Source of the DNA: a phage
Reading direction: 5' to 3' (one strand)
Length of the DNA: 64,000 nucleotides
Sequence record: PX670417.1
The notes below the pieces were generated by a model. The model did no database searches and had not been told where the DNA came from. It saw nothing but the letters and a program-made list of their open reading frames with translations. The position numbers and the translations under genes are program-made. Position 1 is the first letter of the stretch. Each line of letters starts with the position of its first letter. Below, in pieces: positions 1-44,060 of the stretch.

Positions 1-980
1 GGTAGCCCTTAACAGCCCTGTAACATCCCCTTTGCAGAATTTTAAAATATCATTAACAATCTCTTAACAGTTATTACATCTTCTTAACATCTCTTCAGAG
101 GTCTTAACAGATTTTTAACAGAACTAACAAGGGTTTAACAGTTTTCTAACAAGTGCTGAATAGTCTTTACAGATGATTAACAGATGACTAACAAGAGCTA
201 ACAAGTTAATTTTTAAGAGTTATTTTGTTAAGATAATTAACAAGTTTCTAACAAGTGTTTAATCTTTTTAACAAGCTATTAACATGGTCACTATCTCTTT
301 CTTATCGTTCCCTTTCCCTCTTAGTGATTCTTTAAATAGCCCTCTTAAAAGCTCTCTATAGCTCCTTGTAAGCTCTTTTTAGTCTCTTTCTAGTAATTAC
401 ACCCCAACTATGTAGAAAGCTCTTTATAGGGCTTTACAGGGGCTTTAAAGACTATGTCAAAGACTCTTACAAGGCTTTTACATGGTTTTAACAGAGATTT
501 AACAAGGGGCTAACAAGTTGCTAACAAGTGTCTTAAAAGCATAACTATGTAGGGTTTGTTAAGAAATTGTTAAGAAAATGTTAAGGGGGCTAGCATTTAC
601 GTAACTTTTAAGCTACTTTTAAGCTACTTTATAGCCCCTATAACATACTTTTAAAACACTAACAAGCCCTTTCTAGTAGTTCACAAGATAGCTAACGAGA
701 TGATAAAGCTTACAACCTTATAAGATTCTTTTAAGGCTCTAGAAAGCTTTATAAAGGGCTTTTAAGGGTGAGGTAATGCAATCCCTTAAGTTGGGTTGAT
801 AAGGCTGTTATAGGGCTTTATAGAGCGTTTAAATGGTTGCCCTTCCCTTTCGGGTTATGGGCTTATATTTAAGTTGATTTAATAAAAGGCTATAGAGTAA
901 GCTATAGAGTTATTGCTTTTTAAGGTCTAGTAAGATTCTGGAAAGGAAAGGGAAAGGATTGTATAGGCATTTCATAAGAC
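1..980. repeat. Repeat-dense AT-rich noncoding region (recurring words TTAACAG, CTAACAAG, TTTTAAG, GGCTTTATA; short tandem duplications such as TGTTAAG x3 and CTTTTAAGCTA x2)
   Basis: No ORF of 60 aa or more on either strand in about 1 kb; dense degenerate direct repeats; inverted pair CCCTTTCCC (about 310-325) and GGAAAGGGAAAGG (about 940-960). Confidence 0.6.
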
Positions 981-6186: not shown

Positions 6187-6281
6187 TTTTGAATCTCCTA
6201 GTTTAAGGACTTGATTTAGTGGTAAAGCTCTTTATCTGGGGCTTAAGATATCAACTTTTAAGCCCCTTGTAAAGTACTTTA
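6187..6281 (-). promoter_or_regulatory. Stem-loop + RBS cassette, class B (hairpin about 6238-6266)
   Basis: Conserved hairpin and RBS. Confidence 0.65.
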
Positions 6282-6539
6282 TCAGATTAAATTGCCAGTT
6301 AATGATAAGTGCATTTTATAGCCTTTTTTGGTAAAAACGTTCACTTTACCGAGTGATTTTACACCTTTAAAAAGGTTGTTTGAACTGCGTTTTAAGGTTA
6401 GTTGCTTATCAGCTTTCACGCCCCACCTTACAGCAGTTTGTTTTCCGTTGTCAACCACTTTTCCGCATAACTTTTTAGCCATAACGCGAGCGTCATCACG
6501 AGTCTTTGCAGTAATTACAACGTTTTTGATAATAGCCAT
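6282..6539 (-). CDS. Hypothetical basic early protein (85 aa; start moved to ATG after conserved RBS)
   Basis: Same cassette-derived MENLKMAI artefact as ORF 4108-4527. Confidence 0.5.
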   Translation of the reverse strand: MAIIKNVVITAKTRDDARVMAKKLCGKVVDNGKQTAVRWGVKADKQLTLKRSSNNLFKGVKSLGKVNVFTKKGYKMHLSLTGNLI

Positions 6540-6628
6540 TTTTAAGTTCTCCAATTTAGGATTTAGTGGTAAAGCTCTTTATCTGGGGCTTACTTTATCG
6601 AACTATAAGCCCCTTGTAAAGTACTTTA
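6540..6628 (-). promoter_or_regulatory. Stem-loop + RBS cassette, class B2 (hairpin about 6585-6613); duplicate of 4513-4598
   Basis: About 100 nt identity with the 4.5 kb copy. Confidence 0.7.
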
Positions 6629-7009
6629 TTAGTTAATTTTGAAAATTGTCACATAACCATCGCTCCCGATGATTTGTGATACCCCAGCTTTTTCTACTTG
6701 ATAGCCCATATTTTCAAGATGGTAAACAGCATCATCGTAACCATATGCGCCACCCTGATAACGTCGCTTATCACATTTTATCAGGTTTTTACCGCGTCCA
6801 GCAAGTGCATTCAGTACGGCTTTTTCACTTGATAGTGTACCATCTATCATGGTTGCCGTGTAATGGTTGATTTTATTCCCATTAATATCATACTTAAAAT
6901 TGAATGCGTGAACAATAATCAATTTACCGTTAAATTTTTCATCAAGTGACTTCTCCAGTGCGTTGCGGAAGTTGTCTTTATTGATGAATTTCGGTGCACG
7001 ATAAGCCAT
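6629..7009 (-). CDS. Hypothetical early protein (126 aa)
   Basis: ORF preceded by class B cassette. Confidence 0.55.
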   Translation of the reverse strand: MAYRAPKFINKDNFRNALEKSLDEKFNGKLIIVHAFNFKYDINGNKINHYTATMIDGTLSSEKAVLNALAGRGKNLIKCDKRRYQGGAYGYDDAVYHLENMGYQVEKAGVSQIIGSDGYVTIFKIN

Positions 7010-7097
7010 TTTAGAATCTCCTAGTTTAAGGTAAGTTAGTAAAGCTCTTTATCTGGGGCTTAAGATATCAGCTTTTAAGCCCCTTGTAAAGTACTTT
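7010..7097 (-). promoter_or_regulatory. Stem-loop + RBS cassette, class B (hairpin about 7055-7083)
   Basis: Conserved hairpin and RBS. Confidence 0.65.
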
Positions 7098-7304
7098 TTA
7101 TATATCGTAATAGTAAACCGCTGACTGTTTTATATGTCGCTTTGTATTCTTTGTTAGGTAGCAATTAGAGTTAATTGCCGTTTCTACATAGTTGCAATAA
7201 TCAGCTTCTGATATTCTACGCCATGCGCCGCACACTTGCATATAAAAACGTTTTGCCTTTGTGTTAACGTTGGTTGTAACCATCAATTCGCGACTGTACA
7301 TCAT
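7098..7304 (-). CDS. Hypothetical early protein (68 aa); first gene of the leftward early operon
   Basis: RBS GGAGA 8 nt upstream; lies immediately downstream of the candidate early promoter. Confidence 0.45.
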   Translation of the reverse strand: MMYSRELMVTTNVNTKAKRFYMQVCGAWRRISEADYCNYVETAINSNCYLTKNTKRHIKQSAVYYYDI

Positions 7305-7344
7305 TTTGGATTCTCCAGTTTAGGAAGTGGGCTTGCTTGCCCGT

Positions 7345-7385
7345 CTGATGCAAATATTAGATAACCATACTCAAAGAGTCAATAG
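7345..7385 (-). promoter_or_regulatory. Candidate sigma70-type early promoter: TTGACT (7380-7375) - 17 nt - TAATAT (7357-7352) on the minus strand
   Basis: Near-consensus -35/-10 with 17-nt spacer, correctly oriented for the early ORF array; a short GGGC/GCCC hairpin (about 7327-7340) sits in the 5' UTR. Confidence 0.55.
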
Positions 7386-7544
7386 GAATTTTAAAAATAT
7401 TTTTGCAAGAATTGTAATGAAACGGGTGCGCGCGACTACCACAAAACAGAACTACAATCAAGAATTATTTTTCAATCCGCTACAAATTTTTCTGTTGACT
7501 TTTATTTCCAGATGTGGTAGCCTTGTGAGAAATGGCGACATCCC

Positions 7545-7770
7545 CACCTGCACCCACCTACCTGCACAATTCTAAAATGATTTTTCTTGCCCGACCTGAT
7601 TTTTCTCTGCACGTTTTGAAAATGAAAAAGCTCTTTGGAGATTACCTGCACAGTTTGAAAATGAATTTTCTCTTTGGAGTTCAAAATTCTCTCTACAGAT
7701 TTCTCTACAGAACTCTACCTGCACAATTCTAAAATGAAAAAGCCCTCCTTACCTGAAAATTTACCAGATA
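7545..7770. repeat. Imperfect direct repeats (4 copies of about ACCTGCACA(A/G)TT(C/T)(T/G)AAAATGA, including a tandem unit of about 39 bp) upstream of the early promoter
   Basis: Copies at about 7559-7580, 7605-7630, 7642-7669 and 7715-7742; CTCTTTGGAG also duplicated. Confidence 0.6.
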
Positions 7771-7809
7771 AGAAAGGCTTAGTCTATTGTGAATATTCTA
7801 CAGAGTTTC

Positions 7810-8595
7810 TTAGTTCTTTGCGTCTAAGAAGGTAACTTCCGGTGAAGAGAAAATTCCCTCAACATCCTCATCAGTTCTTGCATAGATATATGTATCTGCA
7901 TCACTGCCAAATGTTACTGCAATTCTGTGATTGCTCTTCGACAGGTGGGTAACTAGAGCGTTACTTAGAGACATCTTTTCAACCGGAGGGTTACTTTGAT
8001 GTACCTTACCTTTTCTTCGTCTGAAGAGGGTAACTGCATCGTCAGTGAACACTACTACACCTGCAAAGTATTCTGGTTCACAGTAGTTCTTCCAACCTGA
8101 GCGTAACTTGTGGTACATCTCTCCTTCGTAGACATATAGATAGACATCTACACTCTTCATCACCTGATTAATGATAACGGTGACGGCTTGAGGGTCTAGT
8201 CCACCGATACCTGCACCAATCATAGGTAAGCCAACTTTCTTCAACTGATTAACTTCACAGTATCTGTTAAGTTGCTTCAAAGATGACTCTAAAGCACTGT
8301 AACGGGCATCTTTACCAGTCTTAAGCTGAGTGTAAAGATTAGCTATACGGCCTTGTTTTAAACGCGCTACAGAGAAATTACCTAGTAAATTTTCACAGGG
8401 TTTGTGGCCTATACCACCTGCATACAGATAAACTTCTGTATCAGTCTCATATGCTTTTGGGTAAAGTTTAGAAATCTTGTCAGCGATACCTGCACCCATT
8501 AAGTTCATACAGTTGCAACCGTGACCAATAATATCAAACTTACCTTTATCAAATGCGGAGAAGATATCCCCATTGATGATTTTTACAATACCCAT
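7810..8595 (-). CDS. Macro-domain protein, TARG1/DarG-like (candidate ADP-ribose hydrolase or binder), with about 100-aa C-terminal extension
   Basis: Motif series GDIF / HGCNCMNLMGAGIA / VGLPMIGAGIGGLD / VDVYLYVY, compared by eye with TARG1 (GDLF / HCISEDCRMGAGIA / LSMPRIGCGLDRL). Confidence 0.55.
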   Translation of the reverse strand: MGIVKIINGDIFSAFDKGKFDIIGHGCNCMNLMGAGIADKISKLYPKAYETDTEVYLYAGGIGHKPCENLLGNFSVARLKQGRIANLYTQLKTGKDARYSALESSLKQLNRYCEVNQLKKVGLPMIGAGIGGLDPQAVTVIINQVMKSVDVYLYVYEGEMYHKLRSGWKNYCEPEYFAGVVVFTDDAVTLFRRRKGKVHQSNPPVEKMSLSNALVTHLSKSNHRIAVTFGSDADTYIYARTDEDVEGIFSSPEVTFLDAKN

Positions 8596-11845: not shown

Positions 11846-11904
11846 TGGTTCTCCTGTTTAGTTTATCGTGACAACAATTATACAGCACTCTGCACAAAAT
11901 ACAA

Positions 11905-11930
11905 ATAAAAAAGGCCGCCGAAGCAGCCTT
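11905..11930. terminator. Intrinsic terminator after the rIIB-like gene (hairpin flanked by A-run and T-run)
   Basis: AAAAAA-GGCCGCCGAAGCAGCC-TTTT. Confidence 0.55.
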
Positions 11931-36828: not shown

Positions 36829-37006
36829 GTAAGCCTCTTTTAAGTAACTATTAAGTTTTAATCTTTTATCTTAACGTATTCTATACGTTATACTTTAAAG
36901 CTTTTTAAAAGCTATTAAATAATCTTTTAAGAGTTTTAAAGTATCTGTATAGTTAAACTGTTAAGTAACCTTTTAAGTAAAAACCCACTTCGCAAAGATT
37001 AACACC

Positions 37007-37040
37007 TTGTCAAGTGCATTGTCAACTTGCTTTTTATAAT
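37007..37040 (+). promoter_or_regulatory. Candidate promoter region for the DNA polymerase gene (perfect TATAAT at 37035-37040; TTGTCA boxes upstream at non-canonical spacing)
   Basis: TATAAT 47 nt upstream of the polymerase ATG; the -35 assignment is ambiguous. Confidence 0.3.
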
Positions 37041-37086
37041 TTTTTGCAGTAATGTATGAGGTTAATGGTTTTAGAGGGAGTAAAAA

Positions 37087-39786
37087 ATGGAAAACATAGA
37101 TTTTAAAAACTTACATTTGGTTGGTGATACAGAGACTGATGGTTTACTCCTTGAGTTCACTAAAGTTCACGTAATGGCTTTTGCAGACTATAAATCTGAC
37201 GATGAAGAGCCACCTGTATGGGTCTTTACAGATGAACCTATCCTCGGTCACAAGTATACCAAGTACATCAAGGGTGGCTTGCGTGAAGGTGTTGAGTTTG
37301 CGTTAAAGGCAAAACGTCTTTGCATCCACAATGGTCTGGGGTATGACTGGTGGGTTTTCAATCACATTGCACCTGATTTGTGGAACTTTGATAATCCAAA
37401 GTGTAAGCCGTGGAGTAATTTCTTTCAGGATTCTCTTATCCAGTCTCGTGTTCAGTGGATGGATAGACCAACTCCAAAGGGCTACAAAGGTGCTCATGGC
37501 TTGGCAGCATGGGGTGCTCGTGTTGGTGTCCGTAAACCAGAGATTGAACATTGGGGTGTGTGGAATGCAGAAATCTTCACTCGTGTTGTGGAAGATATCC
37601 GTATTAACGCCAAAACTAAACGTGCACTGGATAATGAATATCTGAAGTTAAAGAAGTGTGGCGTAGACACCTATGAAACTTACATGCGAGCTAAAGAAAC
37701 ATCTTTCTGGATGAGTCAACAAGCTATCAATGGTTGGAAAGCTGATAAAGAGCTTATGGAGTTCCATGTAAAGGAACTTGACAAGTTGACTAATGAGCTT
37801 GCTTCAGAAGTTGAACCACATCTTCCTCCAACTATTAAGACTAAAGGTAAAGTCACTGGAGAAGAATTTGCAAAAGCTTGGAATGAGTATGTTGAAACAT
37901 TTGGTCATGCAGATGGACTGAAGAGAATTACCAAGTACCCTAAGACAAAGTATCGTCAACAGGTACGTAACGGTGAGATGCAGACATATGAAATTAAACC
38001 ATTTGGTAAGCCAACTACAAAGATTTTTAACATTGAAAAGCGGAATTGCTATACACCAACAAACTCTGTAACTGGTGAAGAGTACAAGGAAGGCTTTGTA
38101 GCAATGAAGGATGCTCGTGCAATTTGCAATGAGTTGAATGCAAAGATTGGTAAGAAATGCAAAGACTGGAAGCCAGTAAAAACAGTTAAGACTGTGAAGT
38201 ACTATAACAGTCATGTTGTTAACCACTTTGAACTTGAGTCAAGTCGCTACACAGGTTTGATTGATGCGCCATATACACCAATTGAGTTCGAAGTTTCTCG
38301 TATGACTCAGGTAGCAGTTGTTAAAGACTACCTGAAATCAGTTGGTTGGATTCCAGATGACTGGAACTACAAGAAAGACTCGGATGGTCGTCCTGTCAAA
38401 GTTTGTCGTTTCAAAGACAACAAAAAGATGATTACAAAACATCCTAAGTGGCAGGAGATGGTGGAACGGTGTGGCTTGAGTTATGTTGAACACGAAGGTG
38501 TCCAGTACATTGAGCATAACTGGTCTGTGAAGAAGTACACAGATTTGCTTGAACCTTGCTTAATCCGTACTTCACCAAAACTTACTGAATCATCTTATGA
38601 TACGATTGAAGGTGAGCTTGGACAGAAGATTGCTAAGTACTATACTTTGATGCACAGACGCAGAACTATTGAGAACTCAAAGGATGATGAAAAAGGTTGG
38701 TTGAACCAGATTCGTCCTGATGGTCGCCTTAGTGCTGGTGCAATGGTGTTTGGTACTTCAACTGGACGTATGACACAATATGGTATTGTAAACGTACCGT
38801 CTGGTGCTGCTGTCTATGGGGAACCAATGAGGGCAGTGTGGATTTGTGAAGAAGGCACTAATGTTGTCTCTGTGGATATGAACTCAGCCCAGCTAGTTCT
38901 TCTTTGTAACTTTATGGGTGACAAAGACTTCACCAAAGCGGTAACACAAGGTAAAGAAGAGATTGAGTTTATTCGTCAAGAAGATGGACGCTATTACTGC
39001 AAACACTTTGATGAGTACCTCAACCCAGAGATTGATAAGTACCTTCGCTATGACTCTGAGAATGACCTTTACGTTGTCTATTCAGGGACTGATGCACACA
39101 CACTGAACAGTATTTACTTTAGCTTGAATGATGAGCAGGACATCTTGACTTGTCGAGCTACTCAGGATGAGAACCTTCTACACGAGATTAGTAAGGGTCG
39201 TAAGAAAGCTAAGAATGGTATCTATGCACTGCTGTTCGGTGCAGGTGATGAGAAGTTTGCTAAGACGATTAAAGCTGCAACTACTCAGGAAGGCGCACTG
39301 ACTAAACAGACTTACTTTATTCGTTTGCCTAAAATTAAGAAACTGCTAGATGACTTGGAAGCTGACTACAAAGCGATTAAAAAGGCACTTGAAGAGGTGT
39401 TTGGTAAGACTGCTGCAATCTCTAAAGGGGGTTTTGTAAAGGTTGCTGGAGCTTGGTTGTGGTGTAAATCTCCACACAAACTGTTGAACTATCTTTTGAT
39501 GGGTTCAGAGGCGCAGATTCAAAATGAGGCAATTAACCTTGCTTGTCGTCGTATGATTGACGAAGGTTTGATGAAGTTGAATGGTCGTCAACCAGCTATT
39601 GGTGCTCGTTTGCTCTGCGCATATCACGATGAGACGAGTTGGGAATGTCCAGAAAGTATGACGGCAGAGGTGAAAGCTGTTACTGACTGGTATTATGGAC
39701 AAGCTTCTAAGAACTTAGGTCTTAAGAAAGAAACGCTTGTTACAGGTACTGGTAAGGTTGGTAAAAGCTGGTATGAGGTACACTAA
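37087..39786 (+). CDS. DNA polymerase, family A, with 3'-5' exonuclease domain
   Basis: Exo I VGDTETDG; palm-like motifs VSVDMNSAQL, KNGIYALLFG and YHDE; strong RBS GAGGGAG. Confidence 0.85.
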   Translation: MENIDFKNLHLVGDTETDGLLLEFTKVHVMAFADYKSDDEEPPVWVFTDEPILGHKYTKYIKGGLREGVEFALKAKRLCIHNGLGYDWWVFNHIAPDLWNFDNPKCKPWSNFFQDSLIQSRVQWMDRPTPKGYKGAHGLAAWGARVGVRKPEIEHWGVWNAEIFTRVVEDIRINAKTKRALDNEYLKLKKCGVDTYETYMRAKETSFWMSQQAINGWKADKELMEFHVKELDKLTNELASEVEPHLPPTIKTKGKVTGEEFAKAWNEYVETFGHADGLKRITKYPKTKYRQQVRNGEMQTYEIKPFGKPTTKIFNIEKRNCYTPTNSVTGEEYKEGFVAMKDARAICNELNAKIGKKCKDWKPVKTVKTVKYYNSHVVNHFELESSRYTGLIDAPYTPIEFEVSRMTQVAVVKDYLKSVGWIPDDWNYKKDSDGRPVKVCRFKDNKKMITKHPKWQEMVERCGLSYVEHEGVQYIEHNWSVKKYTDLLEPCLIRTSPKLTESSYDTIEGELGQKIAKYYTLMHRRRTIENSKDDEKGWLNQIRPDGRLSAGAMVFGTSTGRMTQYGIVNVPSGAAVYGEPMRAVWICEEGTNVVSVDMNSAQLVLLCNFMGDKDFTKAVTQGKEEIEFIRQEDGRYYCKHFDEYLNPEIDKYLRYDSENDLYVVYSGTDAHTLNSIYFSLNDEQDILTCRATQDENLLHEISKGRKKAKNGIYALLFGAGDEKFAKTIKAATTQEGALTKQTYFIRLPKIKKLLDDLEADYKAIKKALEEVFGKTAAISKGGFVKVAGAWLWCKSPHKLLNYLLMGSEAQIQNEAINLACRRMIDEGLMKLNGRQPAIGARLLCAYHDETSWECPESMTAEVKAVTDWYYGQASKNLGLKKETLVTGTGKVGKSWYEVH

Positions 39787-43637: not shown

Positions 43638-43646
43638 GTTGACTAG

Positions 43647-43672
43647 GTAGCCTCTTCGGAGGCTCCTTTTTA
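43647..43672 (+). terminator. Intrinsic terminator (AGCCTC-TTCG-GAGGCT + T-run)
   Basis: Hairpin and CCTTTTT on the plus strand after ORF 43197-43637. Confidence 0.55.
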
Positions 43673-44060
43673 AAAGGTCTTTTAAGAGGGTCTTTTAATG
43701 AGGTAAGGTGCGGTCTGGCAAGGCATGGTATGGTTGGGTGAGGTGAGGTATGGGTAGTTAATCGGAGCTACATTAAAATTCGATTACATCACTTAAGAGT
43801 CTTCTAAGAGGGTTTTTAAGTGATGTTCGGTAGGGTCTGGTAGGGTAAGGTCTGGTCTGGTAGGGTCTGGTAGGGTGAGGTATGGGTAGTTAGTCTCAGC
43901 TACATTAAAATGAGACTTACCTTTTTAAAAGGTCTTTAAACAGGGTGTTTTAATAAGGTGCTGTATGGTGGGGTAAGGTAGGGTTAGGCGAGGTCAGGTG
44001 AGGTTTGGTATGGAAGGATGGCAGTAGCCTTATAAAAAATCTGCCAAATAAGCTATAAAA
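43673..44060 (+). repeat. GT-rich structured noncoding region, copy 2 (Y2' hairpin 43760-43785, X2 hairpin 43786-43826, Y3 hairpin 43892-43917, Z, W2 hairpin 44020-44045)
   Basis: Same module set as copy 1; Y2' and W2 differ from Y1/Y3 and W1 by paired substitutions that preserve pairing. Confidence 0.6.

Follow-up and report, generated by a model that had tools for sequence, protein, structure and literature searches.

A conserved direct-repeat array at a transcription-unit boundary of Felix O1-like phages and its possible role as a protein-binding control element

The replication origin of phage lambda carries four sites for the O protein and shows sequence-directed bending, and the 17-bp operators of P1 C1 are asymmetric, dispersed over the genome and overlap promoters. 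In phage T5, DNA transfer stops within a conserved region of non-coding repeats at 7.9% of the genome (bioRxiv 10.1101/866236), and phage PhiTE, with its pseudo-ToxI repeats, is a precedent for phage-encoded repeats that act as an RNA decoy (PMC3475682). Here we compare with these systems a direct-repeat array located at positions 7545-7770 of a 64,000-nucleotide stretch of phage DNA (sequence record PX670417.1), the whole of which is called the window below. The array had been noticed in an initial annotation of the window, which suggested that it could be iterons or operator sites that regulate early transcription. Our comparison of the window with its relatives indicates that the array is almost certainly a functional DNA control element and that its repeats are most likely docking sites for a protein.

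The repeat is a 24-base motif, TGCAC-N7-AAATGA followed by five A or T residues and (G/T)C, and it is present in four direct copies, all of them on the plus strand (Table 1). Four imperfect copies had also been counted in the initial annotation, and the count is well above chance. When up to 3 mismatches are allowed, the degenerate 19-mer proposed there has 5 matches in 64 kb, 4 of which are in the array, against 0.28 expected by chance, and none of 100 shuffles reached 5. The tandem unit of roughly 39 bp that had been seen twice corresponds to copies 2 and 3, which are 82% identical and each carry CTCTTTGGAG, and overall the copies are 70-86% alike (units 71-86% identical over 29-34 nt). Three half-copies of the type CTACARA... 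are found at 7480, 7693 and 7705. Outside the array, the bipartite motif with no more than 1 mismatch gives only three isolated, chance-level one-mismatch matches in the window and the remaining 18 kb of Escherichia phage mio, the closest match to region 7300-7900 (98.8%). A lone motif-like site, TGCACAAAATACAAATAAAAAAGGCC, lies at window 11891-11916 directly after a minus-strand terminator and within a promoter-like stretch that ends in TATAAT. This site is similar to copy 4 and could offer a clue to the origin of the units.

All 289 phage records that match the region are Felix O1-like (Ounavirinae), and the window itself is classed as Felixounavirus. The array directly follows the macrodomain gene in Felix O1, Mooglevirus (Mijalis), Suspvirus (mistaenkt) and Kolesnikvirus (Erwinia phage M7, SB18, Coenus), that is, in all related genera examined (four Ounavirinae genera). 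It is found at the same place in L105, a distant 88-kb metagenomic phage, the macrodomain protein of which is 37% identical to that of the window. Conservation in related phages, which had been set beforehand as a check on the array, was thus found in four genera and in L105. In a blastn comparison of the window with the Erwinia Kolesnikviruses the array was the only part that aligned. The identity of the array exceeded that of the 4-fold degenerate sites of the adjacent gene in each of three comparisons (0.95 vs 0.80, 0.88 vs 0.65 and 0.73 vs 0.61). With respect to M7, the TGCAC-N7-AAATGA pattern is intact while the macrodomain protein is only 36-43% identical and the 4-fold sites are saturated. 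No other non-coding sequence found around the early region is conserved as deeply as the array, and because it has been kept in every related genus examined, it is almost certainly functional. The repeats are undescribed in the literature that we searched, the Felix O1 genome paper included.

Not only the array but also its individual copies keep their identity between genera. Copy 1 is orthologous to copy 2 of Kolesnikvirus M7, both of which continue as GATTTTTCTTGCC(C)GACC, and copy 2 is orthologous to M7 copy 3 (TGCACGATTTTGAAATGAAAAAC). There are 4-5 copies per array, and the spacings between them vary by genus (45/39/73, 45/41/75 and 39/37/37). The place of the 73-nt spacer of Felix is taken by a full copy in M7, and therefore the ancestral array had at least five units; the spacer at 7680-7719 is probably a decayed fifth unit. 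A variant array is found in EcoM2 (L082), L090 and L121, where a diverged inverted copy replaces copy 3 and the terminator hairpin is different. The array of L105 (positions 600-1030) has five motif copies, all of the T-type, and a G-rich insert with a Chi sequence (GCTGGTGG) in its middle. It is adjoined by a second array, in which GTTAATGAGTTGTTAAAA occurs four times with a spacing of ~38 bp.

A general link of the array to macrodomain genes was rejected, as distant macro homologues and RB69 tk.4 are without an array. An unrelated 10-kb viral contig (L092) contains, at 6240-6345, two 59-bp tandem units of the form TGCAC-TATGTTA-AAATGA-TTGATTTTT, which are in a non-coding region upstream of putative genes for the small and large terminase, a function assigned by visual inspection of the translation. 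This likeness is probably a coincidence of the search pattern.

The way in which the motif varies is informative about how it may be recognized. TGCAC and AAATGA are always exactly 7 nt apart: a scan with the exact motif found the full set of four copies in nearly all arrays, and no further copies appeared when 6-8 nt were allowed between the two blocks. The fixed 7-nt gap places the block centers about 11-12 bp apart, which is roughly one helical turn. AAATGA is followed by four positions that hold A or T in 308 of 308 cells (77 distinct units), and the tract after AAATG has the form AnTm (A6, A2T4, AT5 or A3T3) without a TpA step in 50 of 50 distinct 26-mers. An AnTm run without a TpA step is the structural definition of an A-tract, and in a duplex, unlike in RNA, A5 and T5 amount to the same thing. 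The fixed spacing and the AnTm tract without TpA point to recognition of the motif as duplex DNA. The inverted copy that is tolerated in one lineage (EcoM2, L090, L121) also counts towards DNA recognition.

The region does not encode a protein. The open reading frames (ORFs) at 7327-7575, 7502-7684 and 7532-7732 are present, as the initial annotation had listed them, but their frames are not conserved among relatives. The window and Felix O1 differ by an indel that changes the frame, and the copy spacings of Mooglevirus and Kolesnikvirus are not multiples of 3. Hence, the ORFs are by-products of the repeats, and the earlier remark that they simply mirror the DNA holds. At the RNA level, no Rfam family came near its gathering score, and no antitoxin family was matched even at E up to 10. 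Folding of the plus-strand RNA showed no excess stability over shuffled sequences (z of +0.8 for the window and +0.3 for M7), and the z of -2.3 obtained for the minus strand is due to the terminator.

The array takes up most of a 505-bp gap that separates two minus-strand genes. Along the minus strand, the order is macrodomain gene, terminator, copies 4-3-2-1, a variable cassette, a conserved block and the promoter at 7382-7354. Conservation does not extend to the gene downstream, so that the array forms the boundary between a conserved operon on one side and a variable set of small genes on the other. The terminator equals t13 of Felix O1 (Whichard 2010, Table 2). This terminator, which overlaps copy 4, was absent from the initial annotation, and so was the plus-strand promoter-like site at 7495-7523, which points into the array and is antisense to all its surroundings. 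The distance given there between the array and the candidate early promoter (180-400 nt) agrees with our measurement of 181-390 nt upstream of 7382-7354 in the minus-strand sense. Equivalents of this minus-strand promoter were found in Felix O1 and M7.

The promoter scan did not call the plus-strand site. A TTGACT and a TA-initial hexamer 17 nt downstream of it are kept in all Felixouna-, Moogle- and Suspvirus variants, and Kolesnikvirus has instead a strong plus-strand promoter, TTGACG-18-TATACT (10/12 matches), which is back-to-back with the minus-strand promoter. Two alternative cassettes are found between the conserved TTGACT and copy 1 (window 7501-7562 and equivalents). One of them is G-rich (36-51% G), contains GAGTAAGAG and is present in Felix O1, Moogle-, Susp- and Kolesnikvirus. 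The -10 hexamer of the G-rich lineages is TAAGAG, which is without the final T and was not called by the promoter scan. The cassette of the window's lineage consists of TGGTAGCCT, a C-rich end and a TG-extended -10, which replace the G-rich tract. Within the units themselves, no sigma-70 promoters were found on either strand of the window or Felix O1, and a single 9/12 promoter call inside the M7 array has no counterpart in these two genomes.

Several public assemblies (L014, L017, L022, L035, L037/L038) end or turn chimeric at the G-rich tract, at the equivalent of ~7500-7545 to the left of copy 1. Two contigs break off at one and the same base, and one of these runs into a Nextera adapter. 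Another contig continues into unrelated DNA, and the assembly of phage Andreotti begins with a fold-back artefact. The breaks probably represent a coverage hole at the G-rich tract and, less probably, a nick or break in the DNA. A genome terminus or packaging site at the array was rejected, since the PhageTerm-defined terminal repeat sits at window 1-590. Problems in sequencing or assembly are the best explanation of the breaks.

Table 1. Window coordinates of the repeat copies and of the features that surround them
Feature	Position	Strand	Description
Copy 1 (T-type)	7563-7586	+	TGCACAATTCTAAAATGATTTTTC = TGCAC-AATTCTA-AAATGA-TTTTT-C
Copy 2 (A-type)	7608-7631	+	TGCACGTTTTGAAAATGAAAAAGC = TGCAC-GTTTTGA-AAATGA-AAAAG-C; CTCTTTGGAG next at 7631-7640
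Copy 3 (T-type)	7647-7670	+	TGCACAGTTTGAAAATGAATTTTC = TGCAC-AGTTTGA-AAATGA-ATTTT-C; CTCTTTGGAG next at 7670-7679
Copy 4 (A-type)	7720-7743	+	TGCACAATTCTAAAATGAAAAAGC; A-tract and GC make up the base of the terminator hairpin
Partial ACCTGCAC repeat(s) at left edge of array	7545-7562 (one at 7546-7553)	+	Part of the window-type variable cassette
Long spacer	7680-7719	+	Two half-copies: CTACAGATTTCT at 7693 and CTACAGAACTCT at 7705
Intrinsic terminator of macrodomain gene	7740-7780	-	17-pair stem, then TTTCATTTTA; annotated in phage Barry
Macrodomain ('phosphatase', Felix01p025-like) gene	7810-8595	-	Array always comes after it
Antisense promoter-like site	7495-7523	+	TTGACT (7495-7500), 17 nt, TAGCCT (7518-7523), TGG before the -10 (extended -10); read from sequence
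Conserved non-coding block between the two promoters	7383-7494		A/T palindrome TTTTAAAAATATTTTT (7389-7404); half-copy CTACAAATTTTTCT (7480-7493)
Sigma-70-type promoter TTGACT-17-TAATAT	7354-7382	-	Predicted; for gene 7304-7098 and genes beyond; the 'early promoter' of the initial annotation
Small gene, 68 codons	7304-7098	-	Other border of the gap

The reading that we favor, with a probability of about 0.4, is that an iteron-like set of protein-binding sites forms a control element or complex at a transcription-unit boundary. The array would consist of four (ancestrally five or more) head-to-tail sites for one sequence-specific, probably phage-encoded protein, which would contact two successive major grooves on one face of the helix and make use of the narrowed minor groove or a bend at the 5-6 bp A-tract. 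Several protomers in the same orientation could then assemble a nucleoprotein complex over about 180 bp. This complex would be located at the boundary between the conserved operon, which ends with the macrodomain gene and its terminator, and the variable small-gene block driven by 7382-7354, and it may control initiation or read-through at the minus-strand early promoter and at the plus-strand antisense promoter at 7495-7523. We infer both the binding of a protein and its transcriptional target. An element coupled to transcription is in agreement with the strong plus-strand promoter of Kolesnikvirus and with the TTGACT-17-TA arrangement that is kept in the other genera. The alternative offered in the initial annotation, iterons or operator sites, is partly supported, in the broad sense, as the signature favors recognition of DNA. 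The repeats are unlike classical repressor operators: the sites are asymmetric and without dyad symmetry, and they are 181-390 bp away from the promoter rather than over its -35 and -10 elements.

A number of observations weigh against such a protein-binding element. The flanking proteins are without DNA-binding annotation, and no binding protein was identified. None of the known sites that were compared accounts for the repeats. The four M7 copies match the DnaA box (TTWTNCACA) at 8 of 9 positions, but no window copy is within 1 mismatch of it, and one-mismatch DnaA boxes are at chance frequency (169 observed vs 208 expected). No array copy is within 3 mismatches of the MarA/SoxS/Rob marbox AYNGCACNNWNNRYYAAAY. 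In a comparison made by eye only, no consensus among those of IHF, Fis, CRP, Fur, LexA, PhoB and sigma-54 fits all copies, and the misfit of IHF, Fis, CRP and Fur is a further point on this side. For a sigma-70 regulator, the 180-390 bp between the sites and the minus-strand promoter would be a long distance, the spacing of the copies (37-45 and 73-75 bp) is out of helical register, and the AA/TT dinucleotides show no 10.5-bp phasing. Intrinsic curvature caused by phased A-tracts was rejected for want of this 10.5-bp periodicity. The A-tract statistic represents few independent events because the copies are phylogenetically related. Finally, a period of 37-39 nt and 4-5 units would suit an RNA repeat array equally well, and the strong plus-strand promoter of Kolesnikvirus would transcribe the array.

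The position of the array in the genome bears on the other possible explanations. A direct terminal repeat of 581-613 bp was determined by PhageTerm in two Felixounaviruses (PMC6454146, PMC8303462), and the Felixounavirus terminal repeat annotated in MW481326 maps to window 1-590. Therefore, the window begins at a physical end of the genome and the array is 7.6 kb inside. The first ~830 bp of the window are dense in TTAACA/CTAACAAG motifs with a period of about 10-11 bp. Nearly all genes between 1045 and 36828 are on the minus strand. The stretch at 36830-37090 is a divergent intergenic region at the strand switch, with a 21-bp tandem repeat at 36903-36946. The window minimum of duplex stability, the sign change of the GC skew and the strand switch coincide at 36.8-37.1 kb, and 36830-37090 is a better replication-origin candidate than the repeat array.

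The window contains further intergenic repeats. Two 94-nt modules, at 6534-6627 and 7004-7097, are 76% identical to each other; in each, promoter-like hexamers flank a GGGGCTTA...TAAGCCCC hairpin and the beginning of the following gene is included, and they correspond to the 57-bp direct repeats of the Felix O1 genome paper. The non-coding region 43640-44020 is made of three tandem units of ~125 bp each, in the order TTTTAAAAGGTCTTTTAAGAGGGTC, a G/T-rich run (GGTAGGGTCTGG...) and then GGTAGTTA...CTACATTAAAAT.

With four 24-bp cores in the window and 4-5 in the other genera, the array qualifies as a set of iterons if these are defined as at least three direct repeats of about 17-24 bp in one orientation. 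It could thus be a replication origin, in which the repeats bind an initiator and the plus-strand promoter gives an activating or primer RNA, in most lineages by way of a G-rich, R-loop-prone tract that leads into the A/T-rich repeats. Direct repeats with A-tracts at one locus per genome would be expected of an origin, and so would the orphan plus-strand promoter-like site within 36 kb of minus-strand genes, the tract of 36-51% G just downstream of it in four genera and the A/T-rich palindrome nearby. However, the duplex instability of the array is only at the 7th-15th percentile, and the stability minimum, strand switch and GC-skew switch are all at 36.8-37.1 kb. The copies are spaced by 37-75 bp and not by about 22 bp, out of helical register, the window's own lineage has a C-rich cassette in place of the G-rich tract, and DnaA boxes are not conserved. 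No initiator-like gene was recognized beside the array either, its neighbors being the macrodomain protein and small proteins of unknown function with no Rep-like Pfam or PHROG match. Of the replication iterons considered in the initial annotation, the direct repeats in one orientation remain, but the irregular spacing and the location of the stability minimum and skew switch elsewhere weaken the case, and we consider an origin at this site unlikely. It is quite unlikely that the array is a plus-strand non-coding RNA gene, the 37-45-nt modules of which serve as a decoy or sponge, for instance as a type III antitoxin-like RNA against a host endoribonuclease toxin in the manner of PhiTE pseudo-ToxI. 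The period of 37-45 nt and the 4-5 units match type III antitoxin arrays, but the copies are only 70-86% alike, as opposed to the near-identical metagenomic ToxI repeats. No toxin gene (ToxN, AbiQ, CptN, TenpN) is adjacent, the next gene being the macrodomain gene on the opposite strand. The strong plus-strand promoter of Kolesnikvirus and plausible ones in the other genera would produce an unstructured, single-stranded RNA with an A-rich AAAAU stretch in every unit, and the spacer portion of the units, although uniform in any one genome, differs between lineages. On the other hand, the window, Felix O1 and M7 have a terminator hairpin with a T-run that was called for the minus strand alone, L105 has none at all, the TAAGAG -10 of the G-rich lineages is without its final T, and it is difficult to see how recognition as RNA would let A5 and T5 replace one another. 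When metagenomes were scanned for two copies of the motif, true ToxIN loci did emerge (in L129, L139, L146, L149 and L159), which have the layout promoter, two 37-nt repeats, terminator and ToxN gene (Pfam E = 4e-50) and happen to carry ATGCAC-N7-AAATGA in their 37-nt repeats. However, cyclic alignment of the array to ToxI and to the metagenomic ToxI units gave z of at most 2 beyond the searched motif. Homology to ToxI was rejected, as the alignment shows nothing beyond the motif that had been searched for. In addition to the lack of an Rfam match, no similar array was found in 5,426 complete E. coli genomes or 72,556 plasmids, and the 40 matches listed from 185,579 species genomes (GTDB, one per bacterial species) were all in unrelated bacteria (repeats in metagenome-assembled genomes). 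The more specific version, in which an unstructured RNA of four or five 37-45-nt modules made from the antisense promoter decoys a host RNA-binding defense protein across the subfamily and is dissimilar to known antitoxins, is less probable still.

The location of the array allows an explanation of a different kind, a DNA-entry checkpoint like the T5 injection stop signal, at which genome transfer would pause or the DNA would be anchored. At 7.6 kb from the physical end, the array is at 8.6% of about 88 kb, compared with 7.9% for the T5 stop, and small variable genes fill the block between the array and the end. However, these genes are transcribed towards the end, the DnaA-box pairs proposed for T5 are absent here, and there is no indication of a two-step transfer in Felix O1-like phages. 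We consider a checkpoint most improbable. The array could also have no function and be the relic of a terminator-proximal tandem duplication, kept similar by recombination as a linker between exchangeable modules. This would be in line with the merging of copy 4 into the terminator, the similar stretch after another terminator at 11891, the position of the array at the border of the conserved and variable gene blocks and the presence of other repeated intergenic modules in the phage. Such a relic is nevertheless very unlikely because a neutral one should have decayed by now: neither TGCAC nor AAATGA varies and N7 has a fixed length despite the 36-43% identity of the adjacent protein and the saturated 4-fold sites, and each copy is individually conserved between genera.

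Felix O1-like phages are in wide use in typing, biocontrol and therapy. According to the 2010 Felix O1 genome paper, the timing of their transcription is not known, and we found no later study. The identity of the factor that binds the array would therefore give a first handle on regulation in the subfamily, and it would show engineers which intergenic DNA should be left undisturbed. An RNA decoy or an entry checkpoint, if true, would broaden the reach of two mechanisms for which single phage models have so far been the only examples.

In summary, the array belongs to a known class of direct-repeat cis elements, and it is real, non-coding and, by evolutionary criteria, functional. It resembles ToxI and PhiTE pseudo-ToxI in being composed of a few tandem non-coding units of 36-45 nt, but it is without a same-strand terminator, a toxin gene, near-identical units and sequence similarity to them, and its A-tract signature points to DNA. 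Like the T5 injection stop (repeat region 3 in the left terminal repeat), it consists of non-coding repeats that are conserved above the neighboring genes and are about 8% from a physical end. However, the T5 region is >1 kb long and contains inverted repeats, palindromes and paired DnaA boxes, whereas here there are 180 bp of direct repeats and no conserved DnaA boxes. The P1 C1 operators are likewise non-palindromic sites for a phage regulator, but the sites described here all lie together in one place, clear of the -35 and -10 elements. The iterons of lambda ori are spaced by about 20-24 bp, as opposed to 37-75 bp in the array, which is not in or beside a recognized initiator gene and is not the least stable DNA. 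What the array has in common with iterons of the lambda ori type are asymmetric or nearly asymmetric direct repeats of about 18-24 bp, adjoining A-tracts, a single locus and transcription nearby.

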